From assembly GCA_964553435.1 (NCBI GenBank), contig CAZKKM010000003.1:1-35065 (forward strand): a stretch of 35,065 bases of DNA, written 5' to 3'. A program made the position numbers and the translations under genes. The stretch is from an uncultured Muribaculaceae bacterium (GTDB lineage: Bacteria; Bacillota_I; Bacilli_A; RF39; UBA660). The notes below the pieces were generated by a model, which did no database searches, was not told the DNA's origin, and worked only from the letters and a program-made list of their open reading frames with translations. This document shows positions 3,067-23,223 of the stretch, piece by piece; position 1 is the stretch's first letter, and every line of letters begins with the position of its first letter.

Positions 3067-3067
3067 T

Positions 3068-4035: not shown

Positions 4036-4064
4036 TTGACAATCTCAGTCGATTACGATAAAAT
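4036..4064 (+). promoter_or_regulatory. near-consensus SigA-type promoter for pilin-like gene 1
   Basis: TTGACA (4036-4041), a 17-nt spacer, then TAAAAT (4059-4064). The -10 box overlaps the track's TTG start at 4064, which favours the ATG at 4100. Confidence 0.6.
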
Positions 4065-4099
4065 TGATTTATAAAGTTAAGAAAGAGAGAGATGTTTTT

Positions 4100-4477
4100 A
4101 TGAACGATTTGATACTTTTTGCAGCAGGAAGTGGCGATTTCTGCAGAAATACTCACGAAATACTCGGCCTGGTCGGATGGGCACTTACGATATTTAAGGT
4201 CGTAATTCCGCTCATCATCATCGCCTTGGGATTGATCGATTTGGGTAAAGCAGCTGTTTCCAGCAAGCCTGAGGAAATCAAGAAGAGTGCTACTAGCCTC
4301 GTATACAGATTGGCCGGAGGTATTTTGATATTCTTTATTCCGACAATCATCATGTTGGTTTTCGGATTTGTCGGAAGATTTGGAGATGCACAAAACCAAC
4401 TCGACTGGGATGTCTGCTATAAATGTATCACGGCGCCTTGGGATGGCATATGTGCCAACGCAAAGAGCGATTATTAA
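4100..4477 (+). CDS. VirB2/TrbC-like (pilin-like) small membrane protein, paralog 1
   Basis: 125 aa. It has two hydrophobic helices (FKVVIPLIIIALGLIDLG and GGILIFFIPTIIMLVFGFV) separated by a short K-rich loop (SSKPEEIKKS), which is the VirB2/TrbC pilin architecture. The C-terminal tail carries CYKC-x8-C. It is paralogous to 4551-4931, 10635-11141 and the C-terminus of 5001-6197. Confidence 0.65.
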   Translation: MNDLILFAAGSGDFCRNTHEILGLVGWALTIFKVVIPLIIIALGLIDLGKAAVSSKPEEIKKSATSLVYRLAGGILIFFIPTIIMLVFGFVGRFGDAQNQLDWDVCYKCITAPWDGICANAKSDY

Positions 4478-4480
4478 CGT

Positions 4481-4509
4481 TTGACAAAATTTATGTAAAT
4501 AAGTATACT
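4481..4509 (+). promoter_or_regulatory. near-consensus SigA-type promoter for pilin-like gene 2
   Basis: TTGACA (4481-4486), a 17-nt spacer, then TATACT (4504-4509). It overlaps the track's TTG start at 4509. Confidence 0.6.
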
Positions 4510-4550
4510 TGAAATATAGTATACTTTTTATATGGAAAGGATGGTGTCGT

Positions 4551-4931
4551 ATGATATCGCTCGCCGTGAACAATTTTTGTCTCGAATTATCTCCCGTCTT
4601 GAAGATGATAGGAGATGCTCTGAACATCTTCAAAGTGACTCTTCCTCTCGTACTCATCATTCTTTGCATCTTCGACATCGGCAAGGCCGTGATTTCGTCC
4701 AAATCTTCCGACGTCAAAAAGAACATTGTAAACTGCGCCAAAAAACTGGCCGTATGCGTTCTTGTCTTCTTCATTCCGACGATATGTATGATCGTCTTCG
4801 GATTCGTCGATGCCTTCGACGAAATAACAAAAAAATCCGGACTCGACTTCGATGTCTGCTACGACTGCATGTTCAATTCATCGGGAGAAAATTGCAAATC
4901 AGCTGTCGAAATCGCCGAACTCACTTATTGA
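4551..4931 (+). CDS. VirB2/TrbC-like (pilin-like) small membrane protein, paralog 2
   Basis: ATG at 4551 follows GGAAAGGATGG. It has the same two-helix plus basic-loop layout (FKVTLPLVLIILCIFDIGKAVISSKSSDVKK...VLVFFIPTICMIVFGFV) and a C-terminal CYDC-x8-C. Confidence 0.65.
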   Translation: MISLAVNNFCLELSPVLKMIGDALNIFKVTLPLVLIILCIFDIGKAVISSKSSDVKKNIVNCAKKLAVCVLVFFIPTICMIVFGFVDAFDEITKKSGLDFDVCYDCMFNSSGENCKSAVEIAELTY

Positions 4932-4951
4932 AAATGTGAGAACAAAATTTA

Positions 4952-4980
4952 TTGTCTTTGCCCGCATAACATAGTATAAT
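4952..4980 (+). promoter_or_regulatory. possible SigA-type promoter
   Basis: TTGTCT (4952-4957), a 17-nt spacer, then TATAAT (4975-4980). The leader to the ATG at 5001 would be short and has a weak RBS. Confidence 0.4.
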
Positions 4981-5000
4981 TGAAGTAGAGTTGATGAAAA

Positions 5001-6197
5001 ATGAAAAACATTCTTAAAAAGACCCTTTTATTCGTGACGATTTTTACGTTCGGACTCGCCTCAGTCGAAGCCTACGACGTCGGTGGCACGAAAACTGTCG
5101 ATGATATGGTCGATAGCAAAACAGCCGTTTTGGTTTGTGAATATGCCAACAGCAGCGGAACCGTCTTCAATAGGATTTATTATATGTTCGAAAGTTCGGA
5201 CGGTTCTTGGACACCTGGACCGTGGGATGTCTATTATCGCAAAGGTGAAAAAAAGAACGACTTCTATCATATCGCGAATGCTTTCACCGGTGATATCATC
5301 TCGCGCGGTAGCTTCTACGAAGCACTCCAAAGGGATCAGGTCAGCTACAATTCTGACGAAAACCGCATGCCTAACGAAATGGAAGCTGTTTTCACATGTC
5401 CGACATATGCCTTCACCGACTTGGACAACTTCGATGAAATTTGCTACGGAGACAATCAAAGTTGTGGAGACAACTTCGAGTATGGTCCGTTTACACTTAC
5501 CAAGAATGGCAACACCATATTTGAAAAAATTGACAACTATATAGTCGCCTTGTTGGACAACGACGAATTCGTAAGCGCTATTAGAAACAAGACGGACATA
5601 ACGAACACACTCCGCCAAAGGGCGAGGAATTATGTCATCACGACTTGGCCACTAAGTTCGAATTACAAGATGCCGGCCTTCATCGATAACTATCTCAATA
5701 ACTTAGCTGTCGATGAAAACAATCCCAAATTGGCTGAAAGTTTCAACACTCTAAAACAAAAAGCCGTACAAGCTGTCGAAAATGAAGTGCGAATGGGTGT
5801 AAAAACCGAAGAAGAAGCGACACAAGAAAAAGCCGAAATCGAACAGTTGGAAGTGAAAGACATCATCAAAGTCAAAAGTGAAATGTCGGCCGATTTGAAC
5901 ATAAACAGCGGGACCGACTGCAATAGCATTTTGGGACAACAGATGAGCGAAATCGTCAAGAATCTATTCACCTTTATTCAATATTTGGGACCTATATTAG
6001 TCGCCGTTTTCTCGATAATGGACTTCATCAAAGCCGCCGCATCGGGAGACGAAGGACAAATGAAAAAAGCATCGGAAAAACTCATGAAGAGAATAATATG
6101 TGGAATACTTTTATTCTTCGTCCCATTGATTTGTAGTTTCCTCATGGATTTGGGTGGACTGACGATGCCCGACATCTGTATAAGACAGAAAAGATAA
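5001..6197 (+). CDS. secreted protein with a C-terminal VirB2-like pilin module (fusion)
   Basis: The signal peptide is MKNILKKTLLFVTIFTFGLASVEA|YD. A Cys-containing domain of about 250 aa and a Glu/Lys-rich linker follow. The C-terminus (IQYLGPILVAVFSIMDFIKAAASGDEGQMKKASEKLMKRIICGILLFFVPLICSFL) aligns with the three small pilin-like proteins. Confidence 0.7.
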   Translation: MKNILKKTLLFVTIFTFGLASVEAYDVGGTKTVDDMVDSKTAVLVCEYANSSGTVFNRIYYMFESSDGSWTPGPWDVYYRKGEKKNDFYHIANAFTGDIISRGSFYEALQRDQVSYNSDENRMPNEMEAVFTCPTYAFTDLDNFDEICYGDNQSCGDNFEYGPFTLTKNGNTIFEKIDNYIVALLDNDEFVSAIRNKTDITNTLRQRARNYVITTWPLSSNYKMPAFIDNYLNNLAVDENNPKLAESFNTLKQKAVQAVENEVRMGVKTEEEATQEKAEIEQLEVKDIIKVKSEMSADLNINSGTDCNSILGQQMSEIVKNLFTFIQYLGPILVAVFSIMDFIKAAASGDEGQMKKASEKLMKRIICGILLFFVPLICSFLMDLGGLTMPDICIRQKR

Positions 6198-6229
6198 AAA
6201 TTAGCTGCTTTGTCCGCTAATTTTTTTTT
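6196..6229 (+). terminator. rho-independent terminator
   Basis: The stem pairs aaaaattagc (6196-6205) with gctaattttt (6216-6225), the loop is 10 nt, and the T-run continues to 6229. Confidence 0.7.
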
Positions 6230-6292
6230 GGCTTATTTTTTTCTCTCGCACATATACTTTAGTGAATTGCCGTAAGAAAAGAGGATAAATTC

Positions 6293-6862
6293 ATGCTATA
6301 TAAAATCGTTCGTCCATTTGTCAAACTTTTCGTGAGGCTCTGCTTTCATCCCAAAATAATAAATGCAGAAAATATCCCTCCGTCTGGTCCAGTAATTCTT
6401 GCTGGCAACCACACGAGTAATTTCGATGCTTTACTTCTCATGTCGACGACGAAGCGACCGATATCGTTCTTGGGAAAACACACACTTCCGCGTTTCTTCG
6501 TAAAATATCTTCGTGTCATTCCTGTCGACCGCACGAAATCTCGCAATCCAGAAGCATTGAGGCTTGCTCGCAATGTTCTAAAAGGAGATAACATCGTCGG
6601 GATTTTTCCCGAAGGAACGATCAACAGAACTGCCGAATTGACGATGCCTTTCAAGATGGGTGCAGTATCTCTAGCGGCCAAAAACTCGGTGCCTTTAGTT
6701 CCTTTCATCATTACCGGGAAATACGCATTATTTAAAGGAAATTTGAAGATAAAATTCCTACCTCCTCGGCAAATTATGAAAGACGACATTCAATACGAAA
6801 ATGCCCGCCTCATGGCCGACATTGGAAGTAACATAGAAAGGGAAAAGAATGAAAACAACTAA
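6293..6862 (+). CDS. PlsC-family (lysophospholipid/1-acyl-glycerol-3-phosphate) acyltransferase
   Basis: AAGAGGA RBS. LPLAT motifs are present: block I AGNHTSNFD (HX4D), VIPVDR, and FPEGT. 189 aa. Confidence 0.8.
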   Translation: MLYKIVRPFVKLFVRLCFHPKIINAENIPPSGPVILAGNHTSNFDALLLMSTTKRPISFLGKHTLPRFFVKYLRVIPVDRTKSRNPEALRLARNVLKGDNIVGIFPEGTINRTAELTMPFKMGAVSLAAKNSVPLVPFIITGKYALFKGNLKIKFLPPRQIMKDDIQYENARLMADIGSNIEREKNENN

Positions 6863-8564
6863 ATCTTTTGATTGGTCATCGAAAAAGAAAACCGATTCGC
6901 TGAAAATTTCTGCCGCATCTATGTACGATTATCTCGTCGATGCAGTAGGGGATGACACCGACTATTTTGCACTCAACTATTTTGGTAATCGCATCACTTA
7001 CTCGAAGATGTTCAGAACCATAAATCTTCTATCCAAATGTCTTAAAGAATCTGGTATAAAAAAAGGAGACATCGTGACTGTCTGTCTTCCGAATATGCCT
7101 GTAGCGGTAGAACTTTTCTATGCTATAAACAAAATAGGGGCCGTCGTCGACATGGTTCATCCTCTATCATCTCCGGCCGAACTGAAGAACTTTCTTCAAA
7201 AAAACCACTCGCATATTTTGTTTCTTTACGATGCAAACTATGAAAAAATATCTAAAATTATCTCTTCGACCGACGTCAACAAAGTCATCCTCATTTCTGT
7301 TTCGGAGGATATGCCCAAACTTACGAAGACGATATACAATCTTACTAAAGGCTTACGTCTATTAAAATCTCCCAAAGAAGATGCGACTTATATCATGTGG
7401 AAAGACTTTGTAAATCTCGGTTACTCGGTGCGAAACTTCAAGTCGCCTAAGATATCCAAAGACGACATCGCCGTCATCCTTCACAGCGGAGGAACTACAG
7501 GCACACCAAAAGGAATAATGCTTACCAATTATAACTTCAATGCTCTCGCCGTACAGGGAGCTGTGAACGTACAAAACGTCGAAGCCAAAGACAAGATTTT
7601 GACAATTCTGCCACTTTTTCATGGATTCGGCTTGGGTGTATGTGTCCATTGTCCTCTGACTCTAAAAGTAGAGGTCATTCTTCATCCCGAATTCACTCCC
7701 AAAAGTTTTGCTTCCATACTGAAAAAGTACACCCCTCAAGTTCTAGCTGGAGTTCCAACTCTATTCGAATCGATGCTCGCAAATCCCATCTTCTCCAAAA
7801 TAGATTTATCTTCGTTAAAATACATGATAAGCGGAGGAGACAATTTGCCTGTCGAACTCGAACATAAAATTAATTCTTTCCTTCAAAGACATTCTGCCCA
7901 AATAAAATTGACAAAAGGATACGGTATGACAGAAAGCCTCGCCGCGACCATCTTCACATTTCCAGACTCTAACAAACCGGGTTCGATAGGTACTCCCATG
8001 CTCGGCAATACAGTTCGCATATGTCGGTTAGGTACGAACGAAGAGGTGTATGCTAAAACGGTCGGAGAAATATGCGTCCATGGTCCGACGATCATGAAAG
8101 GTTACTATGATGAAGAAAAGGAAACGGCCAAAATCTTACATCTTCACGACGACAAAAAAATATATCTCCACACTGGCGATTTGGGATACGAAGACGAAAG
8201 AGGACTAATTTATTTCACCGGTCGCCTCAAGCGCCTCATCGTCTCGAGCGGTTTCAACATCTATCCCGCTCAGATCGAAGAAGTTTTGATGAAACATAAA
8301 AATGTCTCTTCTTGCTGTGTCATCGGCATCCCTCATCCTTACAAAATGCAAGTTGCCAAAGCATATGTCGTTTTAAAAGACGGTCGACCGACCGATAAAC
8401 TTAGAGCTGAGCTGCGACTTCTTTGCAAAGAAGAACTGGCCTCGTACTCACAACCCAAAGAATATGAATTTGTCGAAAGTTTGCCGAAGACCATTTACAA
8501 TAAAACGGATTATAAAAAACTAGAAGAAGAGGAGAAACGAAAATATGAAGAAAGAAAAAAGTAG
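6849..8564 (+). CDS. AMP-dependent acyl-CoA/acyl-ACP synthetase (long-chain fatty-acid ligase family)
   Basis: Adenylate-forming motifs are present: HSGGTTGTPKG (A3), GYGMTES (A5), TGDLGY (A7) and GRLKRLIV (A8). It overlaps the upstream gene by 14 nt. Confidence 0.85.
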   Translation: MKTTKSFDWSSKKKTDSLKISAASMYDYLVDAVGDDTDYFALNYFGNRITYSKMFRTINLLSKCLKESGIKKGDIVTVCLPNMPVAVELFYAINKIGAVVDMVHPLSSPAELKNFLQKNHSHILFLYDANYEKISKIISSTDVNKVILISVSEDMPKLTKTIYNLTKGLRLLKSPKEDATYIMWKDFVNLGYSVRNFKSPKISKDDIAVILHSGGTTGTPKGIMLTNYNFNALAVQGAVNVQNVEAKDKILTILPLFHGFGLGVCVHCPLTLKVEVILHPEFTPKSFASILKKYTPQVLAGVPTLFESMLANPIFSKIDLSSLKYMISGGDNLPVELEHKINSFLQRHSAQIKLTKGYGMTESLAATIFTFPDSNKPGSIGTPMLGNTVRICRLGTNEEVYAKTVGEICVHGPTIMKGYYDEEKETAKILHLHDDKKIYLHTGDLGYEDERGLIYFTGRLKRLIVSSGFNIYPAQIEEVLMKHKNVSSCCVIGIPHPYKMQVAKAYVVLKDGRPTDKLRAELRLLCKEELASYSQPKEYEFVESLPKTIYNKTDYKKLEEEEKRKYEERKK

Positions 8565-9147
8565 CAAAAGAGAATGGGGTTACCGCCTTTTAAAGCCGAT
8601 CCTCGCTCCAATTTTTTACCTTTATTATCGCCCGAAGTTGATAAATAAAAATGTGATACCTAAAAGAGGACCGATTATCTTTGCTGGAAATCACAAACAC
8701 ATCCTGGATCAATGTCTCGTCATCATCTCTACTAATAGAGTCGTCCATTACATGGCCAAAAAAGAATACTTCGAAGGTCCCTTTGCGTGGTTTTTCAAAC
8801 TGACAGGTACTATTCGTGTCGACCGCGAAATCCACGATGAAGAAGCCAAAGAGCAGGCTTTGGACGTTTTAAAATCCGACCGCGCCTTGGGCATATTCCC
8901 AGAAGGAACCCGCAACAAGACGGACGAATTGTTGTTACCTTTTAAAAGAGGCTGTGTTTCTTTCGCTCAAAAGACTAATGCGACCATCGTTCCATTTGCC
9001 ATAAAAGGCGAATACAAATTTCATAAGTCGAATCTCAGAATAGTTTTCGGAGAACCTTTCACCGTAGCACAAGATGCAAACCTGCAAGAAGCCAACGAAC
9101 ACTTGCGAAACACGATTGCCGATTTATTGACAGATGAAAAACTGTGA
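8545..9147 (+). CDS. second PlsC-family acyltransferase
   Basis: AGNHKHILD (HX4D), IRVDRE, FPEGTRN. GAGGAG RBS. It overlaps the ligase gene by 20 nt. Confidence 0.8.
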   Translation: MKKEKSSKREWGYRLLKPILAPIFYLYYRPKLINKNVIPKRGPIIFAGNHKHILDQCLVIISTNRVVHYMAKKEYFEGPFAWFFKLTGTIRVDREIHDEEAKEQALDVLKSDRALGIFPEGTRNKTDELLLPFKRGCVSFAQKTNATIVPFAIKGEYKFHKSNLRIVFGEPFTVAQDANLQEANEHLRNTIADLLTDEKL

Positions 9148-9238
9148 GAGATTTCGAGTAAAAATAACCTCAAGATAATAACAGGGGTTTATTTTTAAGG
9201 CTTTATAAATCGAACAGATTGTGGTATCATATCACTAG

Positions 9239-10528
9239 GTGATGATGATGAAAAAGAGAACATTGTTCTTAAGCATAGTCTTGACTATCGCGACATTTAT
9301 TATAGGTACCAGCCCAGTCTCAGCTTTGATCGACAGCTGGGTAGGTGGCACGATAATCGTAAAATGGGTAGATTACGGCGACCCTAGAGGTGAAAGACCT
9401 GATTCTATCGATTTGGTCGTCGGAGATAGACTCTATACGAATCAACATCAGACGATTACTCTAAATGTCCAAGATGCCCAAGTCACGAACAATTCGAAGG
9501 ACAAAGAATTCGATTCTCCTGTGACCGAATGGAAATTTAGCAAAGGAAACTACGATACGTTTTTTAAGCATTACGGTGATAAAGCGGGTTGTTTGTATGA
9601 ATACAGTTATATAGAGAATTTGAGTGATTTGGGCTATGCTGAACTCGATAGTCATATAACTGGCAATTTGCATCCGGCAAAATTTTCGATGTCGGGAACC
9701 CTTTTGGAAGATGCTGGAACCCTCGTCATAACACTGATTAAAGATACTCTGACGACCAAAAACTTGACTGTCAAATATATCGACGGAGATCTTCGCGACG
9801 GTAACGACGTAAGAAAATTGGAGTTCGCGATAAGAGGAGAGAATGTCGCGGACCCGATCGCACAAAATGCATACTATAAATTTAATATCGAACCCGAAGA
9901 TACTATAAAGATAGATGGCATAAGAGATACGTATACGAAGAGTATAATAATATCGGCTTCAGATGCTTATCAAACGGGAAATCCGATGATCGATTACGTT
10001 TTCGACGAAGACACTCACAATATCGATGGACGAACGATAAACTATGAAATCGACGGAAACGATATACTGGTGACAGTCGATTATCGAGCTAAGACGAAAA
10101 ATGTTTCGATAGAAATAGAATGGCAAGATGGTGAAGATAAATTGGGATTGAGACCATCCTCTTTGATCTTGAAGGCATACGATCAAAAAGGCAACCTCGA
10201 GAATACTGTGTCTTTATCCAAAGATCACAATTGGATTACAAAAGAAACTTTATATGAAAATATGAAACATTCTGACGGCACGGCCATCGAATACGATATG
10301 AAAATAGAGGACGAAGGCGAATACGAGTATAGAACTATTAAAGATGGGGACAACTACAAAATAATAGCCAAACTAAAAGGACACGAAGACGAAGGTGAAA
10401 AAATTATAGATGATCCTAAAAAAGAAAACAATCCTAAGACTGGTATTTTTATGGGACAGTACATTTTGATGTTCGTCATAAGCCTAGTCGGTTTGATTGG
10501 TCTTTTTACAAGCATCAAAAAAGACTGA
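9239..10528 (+). CDS. cell-wall-anchored surface protein with CnaB-type repeats and an NPKTG sorting signal
   Basis: The start is ambiguous among GTG 9239 and ATGs at 9242, 9245 and 9248. The signal peptide is KKRTLFLSIVLTIATFIIGTSPVSA. CnaB-like signatures are 'IVKWVDYGDPRGERPDSIDLVV' and 'IEIEWQDGEDKLGLRPSSLILKAY'. At the C-terminus, NPKTG (10430-10444) is followed by a hydrophobic stretch and KKD, forming a sortase sorting signal. Confidence 0.8.
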   Translation: MMMMKKRTLFLSIVLTIATFIIGTSPVSALIDSWVGGTIIVKWVDYGDPRGERPDSIDLVVGDRLYTNQHQTITLNVQDAQVTNNSKDKEFDSPVTEWKFSKGNYDTFFKHYGDKAGCLYEYSYIENLSDLGYAELDSHITGNLHPAKFSMSGTLLEDAGTLVITLIKDTLTTKNLTVKYIDGDLRDGNDVRKLEFAIRGENVADPIAQNAYYKFNIEPEDTIKIDGIRDTYTKSIIISASDAYQTGNPMIDYVFDEDTHNIDGRTINYEIDGNDILVTVDYRAKTKNVSIEIEWQDGEDKLGLRPSSLILKAYDQKGNLENTVSLSKDHNWITKETLYENMKHSDGTAIEYDMKIEDEGEYEYRTIKDGDNYKIIAKLKGHEDEGEKIIDDPKKENNPKTGIFMGQYILMFVISLVGLIGLFTSIKKD

Positions 10529-10542
10529 CAGATGAAAAAATG

Positions 10543-10564
10543 AAAGAGAGCGATCTCTTTTTTC
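10543..10564 (+). terminator. weak rho-independent terminator
   Basis: The stem pairs aaagaga (10543-10549) with tctcttt (10554-10560), the loop is gcga, and TTTT follows. The stem is A/T-rich, so the terminator is weak. Confidence 0.4.
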
Positions 10565-10607
10565 TTTGGCTTCAAGCCAAATATTTCTTTATTATCTCGA
10601 CCGATTA

Positions 10608-10616
10608 TGTTATAAT
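10608..10616 (+). promoter_or_regulatory. extended -10 promoter element for the MPF operon
   Basis: TGtTATAAT at 10608-10616 with no good -35 box. It lies inside the track's upstream extension (10566), which favours the ATG at 10635. Confidence 0.4.
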
Positions 10617-10634
10617 TTTGTTAATGGTGAAATT

Positions 10635-11141
10635 ATGAAAAAAATTGTATTATGTTTTTTGTTGCTTTTGACGAGTGTATTTGTGAATACGACCGCTGTC
10701 GAAGCAAAAATTATGCCTTTTTATGATGATGTAATCGAGAAGTTCGATGACGTGGAAATTCCATCTACGGACTATCATCGTCCCGACAACTTCAATAGAA
10801 ACTGTGCCGATTTCGCGAGCACGATCAAGATGGCCGGTGTCTGCTTGTTCTTTGCCAAAATCATCTTGCCGCTCATCATCATCGCGACGGCTTCCATCAA
10901 CATGATGAAGGTCGTGAGCTCTGGTAAACAAGACGAAATAATGAAACAGGCCAAAAAGGCAGGAGTATCCCTCATTGGAGCAATCCTCGTCTTTTTCTTG
11001 CCGACCATCATCTATACCATCTACAGCTTCATCGATAATTTCGAAGAAAACAGGACGAACGATTCAAAAATATGCTATGCCTGTGTCTTCAAGCCTTACG
11101 GCAATTTGTGCACACAATATGCCACATATTACAAAGAGTAG
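10635..11141 (+). CDS. VirB2/TrbC-like (pilin-like) protein with a signal peptide, paralog 4
   Basis: ATG at 10635 follows GGTGA. The signal peptide is MKKIVLCFLLLLTSVFVNTTAVEA. The two-helix module (FFAKIILPLIIIATASINMMKVVSSGKQDEIMKQAKK...AILVFFLPTIIYTIYSFI) is followed by CYAC-x8-C. It sits immediately upstream of the VirB6-, VirB3- and VirB4-like genes. Confidence 0.7.
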   Translation: MKKIVLCFLLLLTSVFVNTTAVEAKIMPFYDDVIEKFDDVEIPSTDYHRPDNFNRNCADFASTIKMAGVCLFFAKIILPLIIIATASINMMKVVSSGKQDEIMKQAKKAGVSLIGAILVFFLPTIIYTIYSFIDNFEENRTNDSKICYACVFKPYGNLCTQYATYYKE

Positions 11142-11153
11142 GAGGAAAACGAT

Positions 11154-13271: not shown

Positions 13272-13288
13272 GAAAAGAGGAATAAAGG

Positions 13289-13612
13289 ATGAATGGCAAT
13301 TATTTGATTCCGGCAAACTCGAAAAAGTCGGAAATGATACTGGGATTATTTACACCGGTCGATTTGATACTGTTCTCGAGTGGTGTGGGACTGACAGTCG
13401 TGTTGGTTCTCGCCCTCGCGGCCCGTACCAGTTCGGTCACGGCGATGATATTGATGTTGCTGCCCGCACTCATATCGGCATTTTTGGTCTTCCCTGTACC
13501 GAATTACCACAACGTGCTACAGCTCATAATCAATATATACTCGTTCTTCTTCGTAAGACAAAGAACGTACAAATGGAGAGGTTGGTGTTTTAAAGATGGC
13601 AGTGACAAATAA
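13289..13612 (+). CDS. PrgI/VirB3-like small membrane protein
   Basis: 107 aa with two TM segments (ILGLFTPVDLILFSSGVGLTVVLVLAL and MILMLLPALISAFLVFPV). It lies directly upstream of VirB4 and overlaps it by 17 nt, the canonical VirB3/PrgI/TcpE position. Confidence 0.55.
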   Translation: MNGNYLIPANSKKSEMILGLFTPVDLILFSSGVGLTVVLVLALAARTSSVTAMILMLLPALISAFLVFPVPNYHNVLQLIINIYSFFFVRQRTYKWRGWCFKDGSDK

Positions 13613-14144
13613 ATCGACTGAAGATTGGCTTCCGATCAAAGCCATAAATAATGGAATGATTTTATTGGACAACGGTTATTTGGTGACCGGAGTCAAAATA
13701 GAACCGAAAAACATCTTCATCTTGGATCAGGATGTTCAAAACAGTGTCATCTTCTCGCTGCGCAACTTCTACAACACGATCGACTACGAATTCTGGCTCA
13801 TCTCAGCCGGCCGTCCGGTCGACATAAACGTTTACTTGGCGAACTTACAAGTACAATACAACAATACGAATAACCAGCACATCAGAAAGCTTCTGATGCA
13901 AGACATATCCAAAGCCAACATGTTCATGAGCACACAGTTGAACGCAGTCGACACCGAATATTTCATACTGTTCAAAGAAAAAAAACCTGAAATCATTCAA
14001 AAAAGACTACAGACCCTGATAGGTGGGTTGGCAAATTGCACGTTGAACAGCAAACAAGTATCGAATGATGACTTGCGCATGCTATTAGATAACTTCTTCA
14101 ACGGTGCTGAAAGTTCGAGATTTGGGGCGGTGACGAGCGCATGA
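13596..14144 (+). CDS. VirB4-family ATPase, N-terminal fragment (separate ORF)
   Basis: 'EDWLPIKAINNGMILLDNGYLVTGVKIEPKNIFILDQDVQNSVI..F' matches the N-terminus of monoderm VirB4 proteins (PrgJ/TcpF/Orf16 type). It ends at TGA 14142-14144, inside an ATGA overlap with the next ORF. Confidence 0.7.
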   Translation: MAVTNKSTEDWLPIKAINNGMILLDNGYLVTGVKIEPKNIFILDQDVQNSVIFSLRNFYNTIDYEFWLISAGRPVDINVYLANLQVQYNNTNNQHIRKLLMQDISKANMFMSTQLNAVDTEYFILFKEKKPEIIQKRLQTLIGGLANCTLNSKQVSNDDLRMLLDNFFNGAESSRFGAVTSA

Positions 14145-15925
14145 GTTTAAAAAGTGAAATAGCCCCTAAGGGCATAGAATGGAAACCAACTTCTTTCCGT
14201 CTCGGGGACAAATATTGTACGATTTTGACGGTCATAAGTTATCCTAAGTTCATCGATCATGGCTATTTGGCCAACATCACGAACATTCCAGGAGTCAAAG
14301 TCGTCATCAAGCATTTGCCGATAGATTTTGCCTTGATGAGAAAGATGATAGATAAGGAGATAGCGGATTTAAAAGAGCGCTTCCAAAAGGAAAATGACCA
14401 CACCTTACAAGAGAGAATTCGTCAGGACTACGAATCGCTCGAAGGCTTCATTCAACAGCTTGCCGCTTCCAGTGCCAAGATTTTCGACTTTCAAATGCAC
14501 ATTCTCTTGAGTGGAGACACCGAAGAAGAACTCGAAAATCGCAAACTCGAGATGAAAACATACATGACAGGAATGGATATGAGGGGGATACCTCTCATGT
14601 TCGAGCAGGAAAAAGTTCTAAAATCTATGATTCCGATTTTCCCTAAACAGGACATCGAAGACAGAATAGGAACTCCGATTCCATCGAACACCATCGCGGC
14701 TATGTATCCGTTCGTCTTCGATTCGATCAAAGATCCGGGACTCAGTACACTTCTCGGAGTGGATTTCTCGGGCGGAGTCGTACTTTTCAACCAGTTCCTC
14801 TATCAAATCAAAAAGGAACACAACCGCAATAACGCGAACATGCTCATATTGGGTGCTTCTGGTTCAGGTAAATCGACCGCAGCAAAACTTCTTTTGAGAA
14901 ATCATTTCCGCAACGAATACAAGATAGTTGCCATCGACCCAGAAGGCGAGCTAGAAGAAATGTGTAAGAACTTTAATGGCGACTTCATCAACCTTGGAAA
15001 AGGTGGACAACTCGGAATGATCAATCCTTTGGAAGTGATCGTCGACGAAGACGAAGAGGACCTCGACAAAGGACTAAGCTATGCCGTTTTGACACGCACA
15101 TTGTCTACACTCAAAGCTTTCATGACCTATCTGTACCCCGATATAGAAGACGACGTTCTAACATTGTTCTCGGACGTCGCCCAAGATACATACAAAAGAT
15201 TTAATATCGATTTCAATACGGATTTTAGAAAATTCAAAAGTACAGATTATCCTACATTCGACGATATCTATGCTACGATCAGAGGTAAAATACTATCCAT
15301 GCCGGAGCATACTCGCGAACGCGATGTCATGGAAAGACTCGAACTGAAGATACGACCTATCACCAAAGAACTTCGTTACTACTTTAACGGTCATACGACG
15401 ATCGAACCGGAAAGCAACTTCGTCGTCTTCAATATAAGAGAACTGATGAATTCCGATTCTGCTATCAGAAATGCATTGTTCTTCAATATTTTGAAGTATT
15501 CATGGAGTCTATGCCTCGACAAAGATATAAACACCGTTTTGTACGTCGACGAAGCTCACGTCTTACTCGGAAGTCAGAATGAACTAGGTGCAGAATTCCT
15601 TGCTCAAATTCAAAGACGTAGCCGCAAATACAACACGGGAACGATCATCATAACCCAACAGCCGACAGATTTTGCGGCAGATAAGATCATCATGCACGGC
15701 AAGGCGATATTCGACAATGCCAGTTACTACTTGGCGATGGGACTCAAAAAACAAGCCGTCGAAGACTTATCAAAACTCGTCGATTTGAACGAAAATGAAA
15801 TGGAATCGATAAAACGGTTCAGCCAAGGACAAGGTCTGTTCGTCTGCGGTTCTCGTCGAATGCAGATAAACGTCGTCCTCACACAAGAAGAACTCGATTC
15901 GTTCGGAACGGGTGGAGGATTATAA
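14141..15925 (+). CDS. VirB4-family conjugal-transfer ATPase, main part
   Basis: Walker A is LILGASGSGKST and Walker B is VLYVDEAHVLL. 'RRSRKYNTGTIIITQQPTDF' is also present. The middle-domain start 'IAPKGIEWKPTSFRLGDKYCTILTVISYPKF' is typical of VirB4. Confidence 0.85.
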   Translation: MSLKSEIAPKGIEWKPTSFRLGDKYCTILTVISYPKFIDHGYLANITNIPGVKVVIKHLPIDFALMRKMIDKEIADLKERFQKENDHTLQERIRQDYESLEGFIQQLAASSAKIFDFQMHILLSGDTEEELENRKLEMKTYMTGMDMRGIPLMFEQEKVLKSMIPIFPKQDIEDRIGTPIPSNTIAAMYPFVFDSIKDPGLSTLLGVDFSGGVVLFNQFLYQIKKEHNRNNANMLILGASGSGKSTAAKLLLRNHFRNEYKIVAIDPEGELEEMCKNFNGDFINLGKGGQLGMINPLEVIVDEDEEDLDKGLSYAVLTRTLSTLKAFMTYLYPDIEDDVLTLFSDVAQDTYKRFNIDFNTDFRKFKSTDYPTFDDIYATIRGKILSMPEHTRERDVMERLELKIRPITKELRYYFNGHTTIEPESNFVVFNIRELMNSDSAIRNALFFNILKYSWSLCLDKDINTVLYVDEAHVLLGSQNELGAEFLAQIQRRSRKYNTGTIIITQQPTDFAADKIIMHGKAIFDNASYYLAMGLKKQAVEDLSKLVDLNENEMESIKRFSQGQGLFVCGSRRMQINVVLTQEELDSFGTGGGL

Positions 15926-15945
15926 AAGGAGTGTGATTTAACGAA

Positions 15946-18033
15946 ATGGGGCTTTTTGACAAACGCAAAAAAAACAAAAACGATGATCGGCCCGAAGAAA
16001 AAGATGGTGCAATTCTTGCTACCGCAATGTCTTTTTGGCAATCACTCCCTGTTCTCGTTAAATTGAAAATAATAGGAGTGGTTGCGGCCGTTGCCGTCGT
16101 CATCATCTTGATGGTCGGTGTACTCGGTGCCATACCATCTCTTTTTTTAGATTATTCCGACGATGCTCAAAATACCAAAGATATACCCGATGAGTATCGC
16201 GAATATTGGGCCGAATTATGTGAAGATGAAGATGCCGGATGTACGGAAGAACAGATCGCCGCGGCCAAGAAACTGAAAGAATCCCAAACGGCATTTTATA
16301 CGAAGCTCGATTCCTTAGTCAAAAAAAACAACATCACGGCCGAACAAAAATACATCGTTTTGACGACAGTCTTCTATAATTATCAAATAGACGACTTCAC
16401 GGCCGGTGCCTTCGACATCGACGACAATGACGATATAAACTATGACTCTTCCAACAATGGAGAAAACGTCTACCAAAGAGAGAAAGATACCCTCAAGGAA
16501 TTGATAAAACAATTCAAAGTCAATACGGCCTTTTGTGAATATACGACCAAGAACGATGCCGGAGAAGATGTCAAAAAAACGGAAACTCTCCGAAGTCCTT
16601 CCGGCTCGACTTACTCGTTCAATTTTTTCGACAATGTCAAATTCACTTTTGGTATTCTGCCAGCTGCCGAAGGCTTTGCCGAAGCCAAGGAAGCATGCGA
16701 AGCTTTGACATCTGGACGCGTATATATGGAAGTATCTTCATCATCGGCTGCCTCGATAGACGGATACTATCGTTACCTAAAGGAGTCGGACTTCTTGGAC
16801 GATAGACCGATGAATGCGCCGGCATATTTAGAACACGCAAAAAAATACGGTTTAAGCGAAGACATTTCTTCGTGGCCCGAGGAAGAGAAGATTTTGGTAC
16901 GCGAAGCAATCATAAAAGATATCAAGTCGATCGTCGCAGCCCATACACCGACTCAAAACAAGAATATGACCTATTTGGCCGTCGGTCATGACACAGCTTA
17001 CTGGTGGCCGATAGGTTCGTCCGAAGTCATCGAATCGAACGGCAAATATTATGCTACGGGCACACCATATCCCAACGTCGTAACTTCAGAAGGTGGAGGT
17101 CGTATCGATCCGATTTCGGGAAAACCGGCGACTCACAGTGGTATGGATATTGCTCCGATAGGAGCTGCACCTGGAGTCGTACCGGTCATTGCCGCCAAAT
17201 CGGGTACGGTCGTCTTTCCGGATGCTTCGACTTCCGTCGGATACGGAAACGGCACGGGAATAGGTGGTTCGACTTACGGAAATTATATTCGCATTCAACA
17301 TACCGATGGTAACTATACACTCTATGCCCATCTGCATGCGAACAGCATACTCGTCCGTACGGGTGATAGTGTCGAGCAAGGACAAGTCATTGCCTACGTC
17401 GGAAACTCCGGTCGGTCGACTGGAACCCACTTGCACTTCGAAGTCCGCGAAGGGCAAGACAGTTACTACAGTGTCACCGACCCTCGCAAATACATATCCG
17501 AAGAAAACCCTCGTCCACAATCATCCGTATCCCAAGACTTCGTAGCTTGGTTCGATGCCAACTTCGAAGGCTCGACTGGAACGGATTCCACCGGAACAAA
17601 ATACTTGGTCAAAGACGTCGGCGATGGAGTTAGAACTGTCGGTCCGGGTGTCACTTTGGATGCTCAAAGAAATAAATTCCTAGAACGTGGAATAAATGTC
17701 GACGAATATCCGAACGGCACTTATATAGATATCGAGATTGTCGATTCTATCAAAAGTCAAATTCTCGAAGAAGCTGCCAGCTCGATCGAAACTACCATTT
17801 CCAATGCAGGATTGACCCTCGAAAAAGAAAAGATCGAAGCGCTCGTCGTATTCAAATACAACGTCGGAAATATAAGCGGCTTTACCGAAGCTTACAAAAA
17901 ATACGGCGACACTCAGGCTCTTTACGATAATTACTTCGGTCAATACGTTCACGTCAAAGGCGAAGTTTGGCCGGGACTTGTAAAACGCAGACAAAAAGAG
18001 TGGGAGTTATTCCACAATCATGTCTATGTCTAG
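15946..18033 (+). CDS. membrane-anchored bifunctional cell-wall hydrolase: M23 metallopeptidase plus GH24 (phage/T4-type) lysozyme domain (VirB1 functional analog)
   Basis: The N-terminal TM is LVKLKIIGVVAAVAVVIILMVGVLGAI. M23 motifs are HSGMDIA (~17134), NYIRIQH...YAHL and GNSGRSTGTHLHFEV (~17400-17448). The C-terminus 'FEGSTG...YLVKDVGDGVRTVGPGVTL...FKYNVG...VKRRQKEWELF' fits the GH24 lysozyme pattern. Confidence 0.8.
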   Translation: MGLFDKRKKNKNDDRPEEKDGAILATAMSFWQSLPVLVKLKIIGVVAAVAVVIILMVGVLGAIPSLFLDYSDDAQNTKDIPDEYREYWAELCEDEDAGCTEEQIAAAKKLKESQTAFYTKLDSLVKKNNITAEQKYIVLTTVFYNYQIDDFTAGAFDIDDNDDINYDSSNNGENVYQREKDTLKELIKQFKVNTAFCEYTTKNDAGEDVKKTETLRSPSGSTYSFNFFDNVKFTFGILPAAEGFAEAKEACEALTSGRVYMEVSSSSAASIDGYYRYLKESDFLDDRPMNAPAYLEHAKKYGLSEDISSWPEEEKILVREAIIKDIKSIVAAHTPTQNKNMTYLAVGHDTAYWWPIGSSEVIESNGKYYATGTPYPNVVTSEGGGRIDPISGKPATHSGMDIAPIGAAPGVVPVIAAKSGTVVFPDASTSVGYGNGTGIGGSTYGNYIRIQHTDGNYTLYAHLHANSILVRTGDSVEQGQVIAYVGNSGRSTGTHLHFEVREGQDSYYSVTDPRKYISEENPRPQSSVSQDFVAWFDANFEGSTGTDSTGTKYLVKDVGDGVRTVGPGVTLDAQRNKFLERGINVDEYPNGTYIDIEIVDSIKSQILEEAASSIETTISNAGLTLEKEKIEALVVFKYNVGNISGFTEAYKKYGDTQALYDNYFGQYVHVKGEVWPGLVKRRQKEWELFHNHVYV

Positions 18034-18051
18034 TAAAAAGGAGGTCTTCCG

Positions 18052-18573
18052 ATGGAAGAAGAAAAAGCTCGCAAGAGAAAAAACATCATCACGATTTTGA
18101 CCATAACAACCGTCGCACTATACGTTGCCATCTTCTTCATGCTCGAAGAAAGAGAAGCAAAGTCCGCCAAAGAACAGGCCGCGATCGTCACAAACTATAG
18201 TGAATTTTATACGGTGAGTGCCTGTGCCAACAAATACATAAGTTTGCTCGGTTCTCGCGATGCCGATTCGCTTTTAAAAGTTTTATCGGAAAGTTACAAG
18301 AGGAAAAACTTCATTACATCATCGAACGTATCCGACAATTTGCCGATTGTCGCAGGTGGTACGACCTTTTTGGCCGATCGCATGTATTATGAAAAACAAT
18401 CCGACGACATCTTCAAATACTACATATCCGGTTTCTTGGAAACAGGCGGTCTCGACATGAACGAACAAAACCGCATACGTTCATATCTCATCGTCTATTT
18501 GGACAAAAAGAATAATGTATTTTCCATCGAGCCTTACGATGGCCGAGAATATACCGAGGGGGTCTTCGAATGA
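18052..18573 (+). CDS. bitopic membrane protein, possible VirB8/TcpC/PrgL-like (NTF2-like) T4SS component
   Basis: 173 aa with one N-terminal TM (IITILTITTVALYVAIFFML) and a ~130-aa ectodomain. It sits between the hydrolase and T4CP genes. The functional call is inference from size, topology and synteny only. Confidence 0.45.
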   Translation: MEEEKARKRKNIITILTITTVALYVAIFFMLEEREAKSAKEQAAIVTNYSEFYTVSACANKYISLLGSRDADSLLKVLSESYKRKNFITSSNVSDNLPIVAGGTTFLADRMYYEKQSDDIFKYYISGFLETGGLDMNEQNRIRSYLIVYLDKKNNVFSIEPYDGREYTEGVFE

Positions 18574-19034
18574 ACAAAAAATATAATGTGATTACCGGCA
18601 TCATCATCGCACTTCTCATTATAGGCTCTATTGCCGGCATCATCATCTTCTTCATGTTCGACACCCAGCCCAAAGATTTCGAATATTTGAAAAATTACGA
18701 CATAAACGAGTACATGCCAGTCTACATCTCGGAAGAGAAGATGGCTACCATGTACTATAACGAATTTCAGTATTACCTAAACCACGACCTGAAGGGTGCA
18801 TACGAACTTCTGAACCCCGATTATAAAAAGAAACGTTTCCCATCGCTCATGACCTTCCAAGCTTATATACTTCCTTTTTATAATGCCGCTTTGGACTCTT
18901 ACAGCATCGTCGCCAAAAACGATAAAAAAATCTTTTATTTGAAGATGAGCGACGGCAATGAAGTCATATTTGCCACTTCCGGTGTCATGAAATACGAGAT
19001 CTATTTCGACGATACGACGATTTCTATAGAATAA
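18570..19034 (+). CDS. bitopic membrane protein, possible second VirB8-like component
   Basis: 154 aa with one TM (VITGIIIALLIIGSIAGIIIFFMF). It overlaps the previous gene by 4 nt (ATGA). It has the same architecture as 18052-18573. Confidence 0.45.
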   Translation: MNKKYNVITGIIIALLIIGSIAGIIIFFMFDTQPKDFEYLKNYDINEYMPVYISEEKMATMYYNEFQYYLNHDLKGAYELLNPDYKKKRFPSLMTFQAYILPFYNAALDSYSIVAKNDKKIFYLKMSDGNEVIFATSGVMKYEIYFDDTTISIE

Positions 19035-19090
19035 CATAGCATTTTCGAAAAAAATAGTATATAATAGGACAAAGAAAAGGGAATGATTAG

Positions 19091-21355
19091 ATGAAATTGA
19101 AAGTTAGAGTTAAGCAAAAAGATTTTATCATGTTTATAGGCATATGTATAGCCCTGTTTATCGGATGTGCTATTCTAGCCATAAACTTTATATCCTTTGG
19201 AACTGACGGTTCATTGGTCGGTTTCAATTTATTCGCCCATTTTGACGGACAAGCATTGGGCCTTACATTGCTTCTATTCGTCGTCTCACTCGTCGTCATA
19301 TTCATGAGCGTCTCATCGACCATATTCGACTTCGAAAAAGGTGGTATAGGTCTCATTTTGGGAGAAAAAGAAGAGAAGGGCTACAACCGTTGGACGACAG
19401 AAAAGGAGATGAAAGGAGCCTTCGGTATCAAAAAAGTACAAGTCAATTTGCCGACTTCTGATGCCGGAGGAATCGTCATGATAAACGACGGCAAGAACAT
19501 GTGGGTCGACGACGGAGAATACCATACTCTCATTATCGGTCAATCGGGCTCAGGCAAGACGACCGCACTCGTCGATCCCCAAGTATACAGTCTTTGTAAG
19601 CATGGCGAATCGATGGTCATCACCGACCCTAAAGGTGAAATCTACAAAAGACATGCCAACCGTCTGAAAGACAAAGGTTACAAACTGGTCGTCATCAACT
19701 TCCGCGATCCCCGTGAGGGAAATGCTTGGAATCCGCTCACGATTCCCTATAGAATGTACAAACAAGGTAAGACAGACAAAGCCAAGGAGTTACTAGAAGA
19801 TATTTCTCAAAACATCTTGATAGACCCTAAGAACACGAACGATCCCTTTTGGGAAAGAAGTGCTGCCGACTATTTTTCTGGTCTTGCACTCGGTCTATTC
19901 GAAGATGCGAAAGAAAACGAAGTAAACATCACTTCGATAAGCAACATGGCCACCGCCGGTGAAGAAAAAAACGGTCTCAATACATTTGCTAAAGACTATT
20001 TTACTTTGAAAGGCGAATCGACCGCACCTTATGAATATGCCAAAGCGACAATTGCCGCTCCGAACGACACAAAATCGAGTATTCTTTCCGTCTTTCAAAG
20101 TAAAATTAGAACATTCTCGACACGTGAAGAACTTTCGGAAATGCTTTCTTATAGTGACTTCAACATGGAAGACATCGGAAAAGAAAAAACCGCAGTTTTC
20201 TTGATAGTCCACGACGAAAAGACGACTTATCATTCGCTTGCGACCATTTTCATCAAACAATTGTACGAAGTTCTCATCGACGTCGCTCACAAAAATCCCG
20301 ACGGAGCTCTCAAATATAGAACTAATTTCATTCTCGATGAGTTTGCAAACATGCCTCAGCTTAGAGATGTCACCTCGATGGTCACAGCCGCTCGTTCTCG
20401 TCGCATAAGATTTACCTTTATCATCCAGAACTTTGCTCAATTGGACGAAGTTTATGGAGACAAAAATGCCGAAACGATAAGAAGTAACTGCGGCAACACG
20501 GTCTATCTTTTGACGAACGAACTATCCGCTTTGGAAGAGATAAGCAAACTATGCGGAGAAGTAAAATCTAAAAAAGACGATAAGACTGTCTCTACACCGC
20601 TCGTCACTGTGACCGATTTGCAGAAGATGAAACGCAACGAAATAATCGTCATCCGCATGCGCATGAGACCGTTCAGAACCGTGCTCAAAGGATCGTATGA
20701 TATAGATTGGGGAGACAATTATCCTGAAGCAAGTATTCCGGAACGCGATACCTATCCTGTCAAGGTTTTCGACATGAAGGGATACGTCAAGGAAGAAAAA
20801 CGCAAGAAGACGATGGACGCGATAAACAAAGCTCAAGAAGCCACTTCGAATTCACCATTGGGTACACTAGGCAATCCAACCGCTCCAGCAGGAGTTGGAA
20901 ATCATCTAGCCCGTGGATTCGATGACATTCCACCTAGACCATTGAATGCGGCAAGCCCCATGACGAAAGATCCATTCGACTTGGACAAGCCGGTCGATAT
21001 CGACGAACTCGTCAAAAACATCGATGCACAAATAGCCGAACTCGAACGCGAACAAAGAGAAGAGGAGCAAAAACGACGCGAAATGGAAAAGAAGACGTCT
21101 GTCGCTCCGACGATCGAAAATACTTTTCTCAAACCTGTTCGAGAAACGAAGACCACGGATGCTATTCCGCCTCGTCCGATGCGCACGATTCCAAAACCTA
21201 CTATCGAATCGATTTCTAAACCTGCGCCTCCCCAGAATGAGCCATCGATGAAAAATGACAGTCAGATAAACGTCGACAACTCGAGTGTCGTCCTCAGCAA
21301 CGGAGTAGTCACCGACGATCAATTCTTCGACGACTTTTTCGGCGACGACGATTAA
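19091..21355 (+). CDS. VirD4/TraG-family type IV coupling protein (T4CP)
   Basis: It has two N-terminal TM segments. Walker A is IIGQSGSGKTT, and 'NFILDEFANMPQL' and 'RSRRIRFTFIIQNFAQL' are classic TraG/VirD4 motifs. A low-complexity Pro/Glu/Lys tail of ~180 aa ends in DDQFFDDFFGDDD. Confidence 0.85.
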   Translation: MKLKVRVKQKDFIMFIGICIALFIGCAILAINFISFGTDGSLVGFNLFAHFDGQALGLTLLLFVVSLVVIFMSVSSTIFDFEKGGIGLILGEKEEKGYNRWTTEKEMKGAFGIKKVQVNLPTSDAGGIVMINDGKNMWVDDGEYHTLIIGQSGSGKTTALVDPQVYSLCKHGESMVITDPKGEIYKRHANRLKDKGYKLVVINFRDPREGNAWNPLTIPYRMYKQGKTDKAKELLEDISQNILIDPKNTNDPFWERSAADYFSGLALGLFEDAKENEVNITSISNMATAGEEKNGLNTFAKDYFTLKGESTAPYEYAKATIAAPNDTKSSILSVFQSKIRTFSTREELSEMLSYSDFNMEDIGKEKTAVFLIVHDEKTTYHSLATIFIKQLYEVLIDVAHKNPDGALKYRTNFILDEFANMPQLRDVTSMVTAARSRRIRFTFIIQNFAQLDEVYGDKNAETIRSNCGNTVYLLTNELSALEEISKLCGEVKSKKDDKTVSTPLVTVTDLQKMKRNEIIVIRMRMRPFRTVLKGSYDIDWGDNYPEASIPERDTYPVKVFDMKGYVKEEKRKKTMDAINKAQEATSNSPLGTLGNPTAPAGVGNHLARGFDDIPPRPLNAASPMTKDPFDLDKPVDIDELVKNIDAQIAELEREQREEEQKRREMEKKTSVAPTIENTFLKPVRETKTTDAIPPRPMRTIPKPTIESISKPAPPQNEPSMKNDSQINVDNSSVVLSNGVVTDDQFFDDFFGDDD

Positions 21356-21361
21356 AATTTG

Positions 21362-21385
21362 ATCCACACTATGTGGATTTTTATT
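21362..21385 (+). terminator. rho-independent terminator ending the T4SS operon
   Basis: The stem pairs atccaca (21362-21368) with tgtggat (21372-21378), the loop is 3 nt, and TTTTaTTT follows. Confidence 0.6.
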
Positions 21386-21437: not shown

Positions 21438-21466
21438 TTGTATTTTATTTAAAATTATGGTATAAT
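21438..21466 (+). promoter_or_regulatory. promoter of the rimP-nusA-infB operon
   Basis: TTGTAT (21438-21443), a 17-nt spacer, then the extended -10 TGgTATAAT (21458-21466). The track's ATG at 21465 lies inside the -10 box. Confidence 0.55.
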
Positions 21467-21486
21467 GAAGTCATTAAGCGGAAAGG

Positions 21487-21514: not shown

Positions 21515-21530
21515 GATGATTGGAGGAATT

Positions 21531-21785: not shown

Positions 21786-21786
21786 T

Positions 21787-23204: not shown

Positions 23205-23223
23205 AAAGGTAAGGTGACCATTT

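Follow-up and report, generated by a model that had tools for sequence, protein, structure and literature searches.

A probable exapted type IV secretion system with a VirB2-like pilin array in the chromosomes of RF39-like Bacilli

The window analysed here is a stretch of 35,065 nucleotides (nt) of contig CAZKKM010000003.1 (assembly GCA_964553435.1), from an uncultured bacterium placed in the RF39 lineage of the Bacilli. Positions 4036–21379 hold an uninterrupted run of genes, all on the forward strand, that encodes a type IV secretion system (T4SS): four VirB2-like pilin modules, a VirB6-like protein, a VirB3/PrgI-like protein, a TrsD-like protein followed by VirB4, a wall hydrolase with M23 and lysozyme domains, two bitopic proteins, and a type IV coupling protein (T4CP). 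I conclude that this cluster is probably an exapted T4SS, fixed in the chromosome and vertically inherited among RF39-like Bacilli with small genomes, and that interaction with a partner cell is to be favoured over transfer of a mobile element as its role.

RF39 is a prevalent uncultured gut order, found in humans and in animals, with genomes of ∼1–1.9 Mb. In an incomplete search of the literature, I found no paper tying it to a T4SS. Three features are distinctive here: the four-membered array of PF18895 paralogues, among them one with a fused ectodomain; chromosomal fixation across the order; and the extreme conservation of the motor. A first-pass annotation of the window had listed the components of the system, and every one of them was found at or close to the position it had been assigned. 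That annotation omitted the separate TrsD-like gene of 182 amino acids (aa) at 13596–14144, which corresponds to the VirB4 N-terminal domain, and a trio of lipid genes (PlsC, long-chain-fatty-acid-CoA ligase, PlsC) at 6293–9147, within the pilin array.

Distribution and gene order

Relatives were gathered from a one-genome-per-species collection, in which at least 505 genomes gave a VirB4 match. The best 80 matches, with VirB4 sequences 71–96% identical, were taken as loci; counts at the level of loci refer to these 80–81 related loci, with ∼20 kb examined per genome. Gene identities within the loci were assigned by clustering and by reading of cluster representatives, 10 of which were also run against Pfam.

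Among gut Bacilli, the same cluster recurs in at least 505 species-level genomes. Its order is conserved across the 80 loci, and runs from the pilins through VirB6, PrgI, TrsD and VirB4 (then the hydrolase and the bitopic proteins) to the T4CP. Where the contig leaves enough flank, 55 of 58 loci have pilins and 42 of 49 have the T4CP. Two relatives lie on long contigs, of 1.03 Mb (locus L082) and ∼1.18 Mb (DAJPHG010000001.1, circular), and the clusters sit in genomes of ∼1.0–1.2 Mb. An apparent second copy of the cluster in DAJPHG010000001.1 was rejected, as it corresponds to the overlapping ends of one circular contig. Across the loci, the flanks are clade-specific housekeeping genes, such as murC, M16 peptidases, rmuC or rimP-nusA, as read from the cluster representatives.

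The relatives are gut metagenome-assembled genomes (MAGs), with record titles that are mostly Bacilli, Tenericutes and Erysipelotrichaceae, together with Mycoplasma, Candidatus Coprovivens and a few Muribaculaceae or Clostridium. Candidatus Coprovivens belongs to the GTDB order RF39, family CAG-1000. Several of the nearest MAGs (loci L001, L003, L005, L010, L034, L043 and L047) are titled "uncultured Muribaculaceae bacterium", which would place them in the Bacteroidota; their gene content and NCBI protein names point to Bacilli/Firmicutes. The Muribaculaceae and Clostridium titles are probably mislabelled submissions.

Evolutionary rates and descent

Synonymous divergence (dS) is saturated even for the nearest relatives, and dN/dS ratios were therefore dropped, leaving the nonsynonymous divergence (dN) as the sole measure. 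Against the closest relative that carries both kinds of gene, dN is 0.026 for TrsD and 0.045 for VirB4, compared to 0.071 for nusA, 0.082 for infB and 0.10 for the T4CP. Overall, the values range from 0.034 to 0.045 for VirB4, and from 0.026 to 0.030 for TrsD. The pilins, VirB6, the hydrolase and the bitopic proteins show a dN of 0.2–0.55, and the first three of these evolve 5–15 times faster than VirB4, which implies that the exposed parts of the machine change rapidly.

I also compared the pairwise identities of VirB4 with those of the flanking genes. The two are correlated, with Spearman coefficients of 0.5–0.8 overall (0.82 for RmuC, ∼0.8 for the M16 peptidases, 0.66 for MurC), and VirB4 is always far above its flanks, with for example a median identity of 0.94 against 0.63–0.65 for the M16 peptidases. 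Co-divergence of VirB4 with the flanks, combined with its high conservation, is the pattern expected if the cluster descends vertically and its motor is strongly constrained. Codon usage and GC content, which the first-pass annotation had proposed to compare between the two parts of the window, gave a concordant picture: the cluster matches the adjacent housekeeping genes, with a correlation of relative synonymous codon usage (RSCU) of r = 0.905.

Mobile-element hallmarks and outside relatives

Among the 37 open reading frames (ORFs) of the window that were scanned, Pfam identified no relaxase, recombinase, replication or partition family, in agreement with the first-pass annotation. No tRNA genes are present in the window, and the att-like flanking repeats which that annotation had suggested looking for are absent around the region. 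The related loci were then searched within 10 kb of virB4, using as queries the MobL, ArdC-primase, Toprim, SSB and serine-recombinase proteins of outside conjugative relatives. MobL, ArdC-primase, Toprim and SSB had no match in the 81 loci or in the window, in a search that used these queries and not a full panel of MOB-family hidden Markov models (HMMs). A serine-recombinase-like match was obtained in one locus, L039 (1/81).

The VirB4 family forms a single isolated cluster in a library grouped at 50% identity. The next clusters are 44% and 43% identical to it, and the rest are at 34% or below. The relatives inspected in this last group are four conjugative elements whose core genes come in the same order, namely an integrative and conjugative element (ICE) of Thomasclavelia ramosa, with SSB, Toprim and a serine recombinase, and three MobL-relaxase elements with ArdC-primase, SSB or partition genes. 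The best matches among plasmid VirB4 proteins are 28–29% identical, and the nearest named relatives are elements of Erysipelotrichales and Mycoplasmatota. In all four outside relatives, genes for DNA processing or integration lie no more than 10 kb from virB4. Since the processing genes are kept in 4/4 outside relatives and found in none of the 81 RF39 loci, the RF39 T4SS looks like a conjugation machine minus its DNA-processing module. The best explanation is that its ancestor was a conjugative element of Bacillota, in the mating-pair-formation class MPF-FATA and of the kind with a split VirB4 (TrsD + VirB4), and that the DNA-processing and integration module was lost in cis.

The 43% cluster (GCA_016648615.1) has a TraC-like gene and virB4 directly followed by relA/spoT, uvrD and a NUDIX gene. 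Its position beside relA and uvrD indicates that it, too, is chromosomal, and it may represent a further T4SS fixed in the chromosome of a neighbouring lineage.

Given these relatives, the RF39 machine might still move DNA between RF39 cells, be it pieces of the chromosome, as happens in the chromosomal transfer of Mycoplasma, or an element that it mobilises in trans, with the help of a relaxase encoded elsewhere or of an unrecognised DNA-processing protein. The T4CP is conserved, adjacent to the other genes and passes a curated conjugative model; the nearest curated families are Mycoplasma ICE proteins (VirB4_plasma at 7.5e-109, Mbov_0396 and Mbov_0395); and the near outside relatives are all conjugative elements. 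I nonetheless consider chromosomal conjugation unlikely, because MobL, primase and SSB are unmatched near virB4 in the 81 loci and the window, in contrast to the retention of such genes in the four outside relatives, and because VirB4 is conserved above NusA and IF2, which is unusual for an accessory of gene exchange.

That the cluster is part of an ordinary ICE, with a relaxase and an integrase just outside the window, is far less probable still. The contig spans only 36.4 kb, which leaves the left side out of view; L082 has an IS30-like gene 8 kb upstream of its pilins, and L039 gives the recombinase-like match. Against these stand the presence of the cluster in at least 505 species, with a conserved order and clade-specific housekeeping flanks, its co-divergence with these flanks, its native codon usage, the absence of att-like repeats and tRNA genes, and a dS that is saturated between the nearest relatives while the dN of VirB4 is ∼0.04. 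The ordinary-ICE reading is largely refuted. Chromosomal domestication, one of the possibilities raised in the first-pass annotation, is instead supported by the spread over these species, the co-divergence, the codon usage, and the lack of matches to MobL, ArdC-primase, Toprim and SSB within 10 kb of virB4 in the 81 loci and the window.

The pilin array

All features described in this and the following sections are on the forward strand. Pilin A (125 aa, 4100–4477, gene call P0121) is a VirB2-like helical hairpin, as judged by alignment and by AlphaFold2. Pilin B (4509–4931, gene call P0130) has 140 aa as called, its real start perhaps lying at 4551, and is 41% identical to pilin A (alignment A1). 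Pilin C (398 aa, 5001–6197) consists of a signal peptide, an ectodomain of ∼280 aa and a C-terminal pilin module, and pilin D (168 aa, 10635–11141, gene call P0122), assigned by alignment, possesses a Sec signal peptide. Promoter-like sites precede pilin A (4036–4064, 11/12 positions), pilin B (4481–4509, 11/12) and pilin C (4952–4980, 10/12), identified as matches to the sigma-70 consensus only.

The four modules can be aligned to each other, with two hydrophobic helices, a Lys-rich loop, an FF-P-T motif and conserved cysteines. Pilin C matches the Pfam family PF18895 (T4SS_pilin) with 31.5 bits, above the cut-off of 26.6 (E = 1.9e-7). Pilins A, B and D are themselves below the PF18895 threshold, yet the alignment shows them to be clearly homologous to pilin C, and 52 of 81 homologues of the small pilins A and B match PF18895 at E ≤ 0.01. 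The AlphaFold2 model of pilin A is a two-helix hairpin (helices 19–54 and 57–89), with a predicted local distance difference test (pLDDT) score of 82.5. For pilin C the overall pLDDT is 78, with values of 80–94 in the ectodomain, for which Foldseek identified no significant fold match in the PDB.

The first-pass annotation had left its VirB4, T4CP and VirB2-like calls open to HMM and structure searches. Those for VirB4 and the T4CP are supported; the pilins are recognised at the family level through PF18895, and are not recovered against solved VirB2 structures. The sequence evidence thus supports a VirB2-like assignment for these predicted pilins, at the level of the family.

In 81 homologues (alignment A2), cysteines C15, C106 and C109 are invariant and C118 is nearly so, with one placed N-terminal of helix 1 and three C-terminal of helix 2. 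A paper on a "conserved pilin" in TANB77 was considered as a precedent for a T4SS pilin and set aside, as its subject is Tad pili.

The core secretion machine

Downstream of pilin D lies the VirB6-like gene (11154–13271), encoding a polytopic protein with a hydrophilic C-terminal extension of ∼300 aa. Residues 10–378 match the NCBIfam families pLS20_p028 (1e-7), MMCAP2_0566 (5e-7) and Mbov_0396 (4e-5), all under the curated cut-offs. It is followed by a small VirB3/PrgI-like membrane protein (13289–13612; Pfam PrgI, E = 0.0027), the family of which gives a PrgI match in 17 of 49 members and a TcpE match in 13 of 49. The place and order of the VirB6-like and PrgI-like genes beside virB4 are kept in 63–71 loci.

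The TrsD/TraC-like gene (13596–14144) encodes the VirB4 N-terminal domain as a gene of its own. It matches positions 100–279 of VirB4_plasma at 1.2e-14 and TrsD at 3.8e-4 (NCBIfam), and its homologues carry the TraC-like domain PF26593. The VirB4 ATPase itself (14141–15925) matches AAA_10 (3e-14) and P-loop_TraG (2e-12) in Pfam, and the NCBIfam families VirB4_plasma of Mycoplasma ICEs (7.5e-109) and CD1110 (1e-53). Its Walker A motif (GASGSGKST) and DEAH box, read from the sequence, are intact. In L082, VirB4 is called as two ORFs of 182 and 407 aa (15554–17339), probably through a frameshift in the long-read assembly and not as a genuine split.

The next gene (15946–18033) encodes a membrane-anchored wall hydrolase in the VirB1 role, with Peptidase_M23 (6e-24) and Phage_lysozyme (1e-9) domains; distant relatives have NlpC/P60 in its place. 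The two bitopic proteins (18052–19034), of 173 and 154 aa, are paralogues and fall in the same cluster. The profile of this family gives a weak match to designed NTF2 folds (E = 0.012–1), and they are possibly VirB8-like. The last gene is that of the T4CP (19091–21355; T4SS-DNA_transf, 2e-55), with an acidic, Pro-rich C-terminal tail. It passes the NCBIfam model conju_CD1115, with 305 bits against a cut-off of 250.

Flanking and inserted genes

A terminator-like hairpin (21361–21379) ends the cluster, and a housekeeping operon (rimP-nusA-ylxR-infB-rbfA-...-truB, 21465–27642, identified by Pfam) follows. The succession of T4CP, terminator and rimP operon noted at first pass stands for the window, and does not hold as a general feature, being found only in the clade of the window plus one distant genome. 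A scan of metagenomes with NusA gave no relative above 78% identity, and showed the adjacency to rimP to be limited to the clade. In the distant locus L159 (OMCP01000882.1), with a NusA 50% identical, the hydrolase and T4CP are also directly upstream of rimP, so that the junction of T4CP and rimP may be ancestral or may have arisen more than once. Further downstream, an operon-like run at 28020–32303 encodes a fused solute-binding/VWA protein, a Halogen_Hydrol-family protein, a 378-aa protein without Pfam match and an SPFH/Band-7 protein, with no obvious link to the T4SS. An Rfam scan of the window gave no match.

A 4.2-kb insertion, comprising the lipid trio and a CnaB gene, separates pilin C from pilin D. 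The trio (6293–9147; Pfam, NCBIfam) encodes two PlsC-like acyltransferases, with a long-chain-fatty-acid-CoA ligase between them, and is common only to the two closest relatives, L001 and L002. The close relative L082 is without it, and has pilin C, pilin D and VirB6 side by side. The trio resembles a split Aas-type system for lysophospholipid re-acylation. VirB2 pili of diderm bacteria bind phospholipid; the trio might be related to the pilus, or may simply comprise lipid-scavenging genes.

The CnaB-domain surface protein (9239–10528) has a marginal Cna_B match, with 23.1 bits against 22.3, and its C-terminus combines an NPKTG sorting signal with a hydrophobic stretch and KKD. The window has no gene for a sortase. 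None of the 80 related loci matches the CnaB gene, and a 24-nt direct repeat, D8 (TGACAGATGAAAAA...), brackets it at 9128–9151 and 10526–10549, so that it looks like a cassette insertion. The lipid trio and the CnaB gene are, as judged from the sequence comparison, recent additions outside the conserved machine.

Upstream of the pilins are a surface protein with PARCEL/DUF285 repeats (597–2501; Pfam DUF285, 8e-78; NCBIfam PARCEL repeat, 2e-93), a 118-aa protein, and a bitopic Ig-like protein (3068–3994). The DUF285 gene contains seven tandem PARCEL repeats of 78 nt (26 aa) each, at 1543–2310. The block 597–3994 is not conserved among the relatives, L082 having other large surface proteins there; its products may be adhesins that act with the T4SS.

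In distant RF39 loci (L015, L029, L051, L071 and ∼30 others), conserved genes 5–10 kb upstream of virB4, before the pilins, have a Flp pilin-, TadE- and CpaE-like look by eye. Clusters 9, 10, 12 and 32, upstream of the pilins in distant loci, were considered by eye as Tad/Flp-like; they have no Pfam match, and the assignment is unconfirmed. The comparison also covers L081 (16486–22059). The Mycoplasmatota plasmid with the best plasmid match to VirB4 has annotated CpaF and TadB/C directly after its T4SS.

Discussion

The gene content suggests how an exapted, chromosomal T4SS might work in these bacteria. The M23/lysozyme enzyme would open the cell wall, and VirB6, VirB3 and both bitopic proteins would build a platform in the membrane. 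TrsD and VirB4 would power the extraction of hairpin pilins from the membrane, and the extracted pilins would stack on VirB6 to form a short tube across the wall, with the ectodomain of pilin C perhaps serving as an adhesive or tip subunit. A substrate, protein or DNA, would enter this conduit by way of the T4CP and reach an adjacent cell in a contact-dependent manner.

Several points weigh against this interpretation. The system is known here from its genes, and not from function, expression or a filament, and a conjugation-type T4CP that passes a curated model suits the transfer of DNA as well as of protein. A relaxase could lie elsewhere in the genome, since ∼20 kb were examined in each, and the loci were searched by clustering and with the MobL, ArdC-primase, Toprim, SSB and serine-recombinase queries rather than with the full MOB set. 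The taxonomy is based on record titles and one named genus. The higher similarity of VirB4 relative to housekeeping proteins could come in part from transfer of the cluster within the order. Finally, a Foldseek search of pilin A against the PDB gave no match at E < 1, in a comparison where simple hairpins are poorly discriminated, and the pilin profile found no solved VirB2 pilin among PDB sequences, only nonspecific helical or transmembrane matches. The tie to classical VirB2 is therefore made through Pfam, topology and gene position.

A machine for DNA uptake or release, in the manner of the Helicobacter ComB system or the Neisseria gonococcal genetic island (GGI), would serve nucleotide scavenging or transformation and would suit a chromosomal system with no relaxase in cis, in a reduced-genome host for which auxotrophies are reported, but it is hardly credible, given that ComB works without a T4CP, which is present and conserved here, that the GGI needs a relaxase, of which none was seen in the window, and that competence in the patescibacterium Southlakia epibionticum is separable from the essentiality of its T4SS.

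A chromosomally fixed, exapted T4SS accordingly remains the preferred reading, and would represent a second case, independent or ancestral, of a conjugation machine exapted in a genome-reduced lineage. It also provides a molecular handle on the way of life of RF39, which is common in the human gut and has never been grown. A bolder proposal, which I regard as rather doubtful, is that RF39 depends on the T4SS for a contact-dependent, possibly epibiotic or parasitic life, with delivery of effectors to bacterial or host cells, or extraction of resources from them. If this were true, exapted conjugation machines bearing a pilus would be a recurrent solution of genome-reduced monoderms, either independent of, or ancestrally linked to, the essential system of Patescibacteria.

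Comparison with known systems

The closest parallel is found in Patescibacteria, which possess a chromosomal, relaxase-less T4SS with arrays of VirB2 detected by PF18895, VirB6, PrgI and a separate TrsD (Wang et al., 2023; Quinonero-Coronel et al., 2025). In Southlakia epibionticum (SEML1_0006–0019), a peptidase and a lysozyme are encoded downstream of virB4, and the T4SS is essential for epibiotic growth. The RF39 system similarly belongs to a monoderm host with a small genome, is chromosomal and lineage-wide, and has no relaxase in the cluster. It shares the divergent array of PF18895-type pilins, VirB6, PrgI/VirB3 and a separate TrsD before VirB4, and, as in Southlakia, peptidase and lysozyme come directly after virB4. 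It differs in its host, which is here a member of the Bacillota (RF39-like), and in its T4CP, adjacent and conserved here, whereas only 148 of the 5,713 patescibacterial T4CPs are near virB4. The nearest named relatives of its VirB4, from Erysipelotrichales and Mycoplasmatota elements, are likewise not patescibacterial. PF18895 is regarded as typical of Patescibacteria. A review of December 2025 described VirB2 as absent from Gram-positive T4SSs except those of Patescibacteria, whose system would be unique among monoderms, and a survey of 2025 allowed for the patescibacterial pilins having been co-opted from another class of T4SS, MPF-FATA being thought to lack them. A Patescibacteria-like architecture fixed in an order of Bacillota bears on the source of these pilins.

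The core of the machine resembles that of MobL-type plasmids and ICEs of Bacillota (pLS20/pGO1-like MPF-FATA), which combine a small two-helix protein, VirB6-like, PrgI-like and TrsD/TraC-like proteins, VirB4, a wall hydrolase and a T4CP; the VirB6-like protein matches the pLS20_p028 family. In contrast, VirB4 is just 29–34% identical to those of the MobL-type elements and the Thomasclavelia ramosa ICE, the RF39 loci are without the MobL, ArdC-primase and SSB of such elements within 10 kb, and they hold three to four PF18895 pilin paralogues, one of which is fused to an ectodomain.

Mycoplasma ICEs provide the best curated match for VirB4, and have the same gene order, with Mbov_0395 (pilin-like), Mbov_0396 (transmembrane) and Mbov_0397 (ATPase). 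The PrgI, TrsD and VirB4 proteins of the window tile the fused Mycoplasma VirB3-VirB4 protein end to end, at model positions 2–96, 100–279 and 294–891. Unlike in these ICEs, the genes are split in RF39, all scores are under the curated cut-offs, the host is walled, as indicated by the hydrolase gene and the sortase signal, and the cluster lies outside a mobile element.

The first-pass annotation had taken Gram-positive T4SSs to be generally without a VirB2-type pilus. That premise is outdated, as a preprint reports that the protein PrgF of pCF10 is VirB2-like and essential and that, of 174 Gram-positive conjugative plasmids chosen as representatives, 95% have a VirB2-like candidate (ter Beek et al., bioRxiv, December 2025), and NCBIfam names a pilin-like protein in Mycoplasma ICEs. 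In view of the PrgF preprint, pilins alone are not new in this setting. PrgF and the related candidates are, like the RF39 pilins, small two-helix proteins with a charged loop, encoded beside virB6, and ter Beek et al. propose that the PrgF set forms a tube on a VirB6 pentamer. What sets the RF39 system apart from PrgF is the presence of four paralogues, at least three of which have their own promoter-like site, with four conserved cysteines, membership in the PF18895 family, and the fusion of one of them to an ectodomain.

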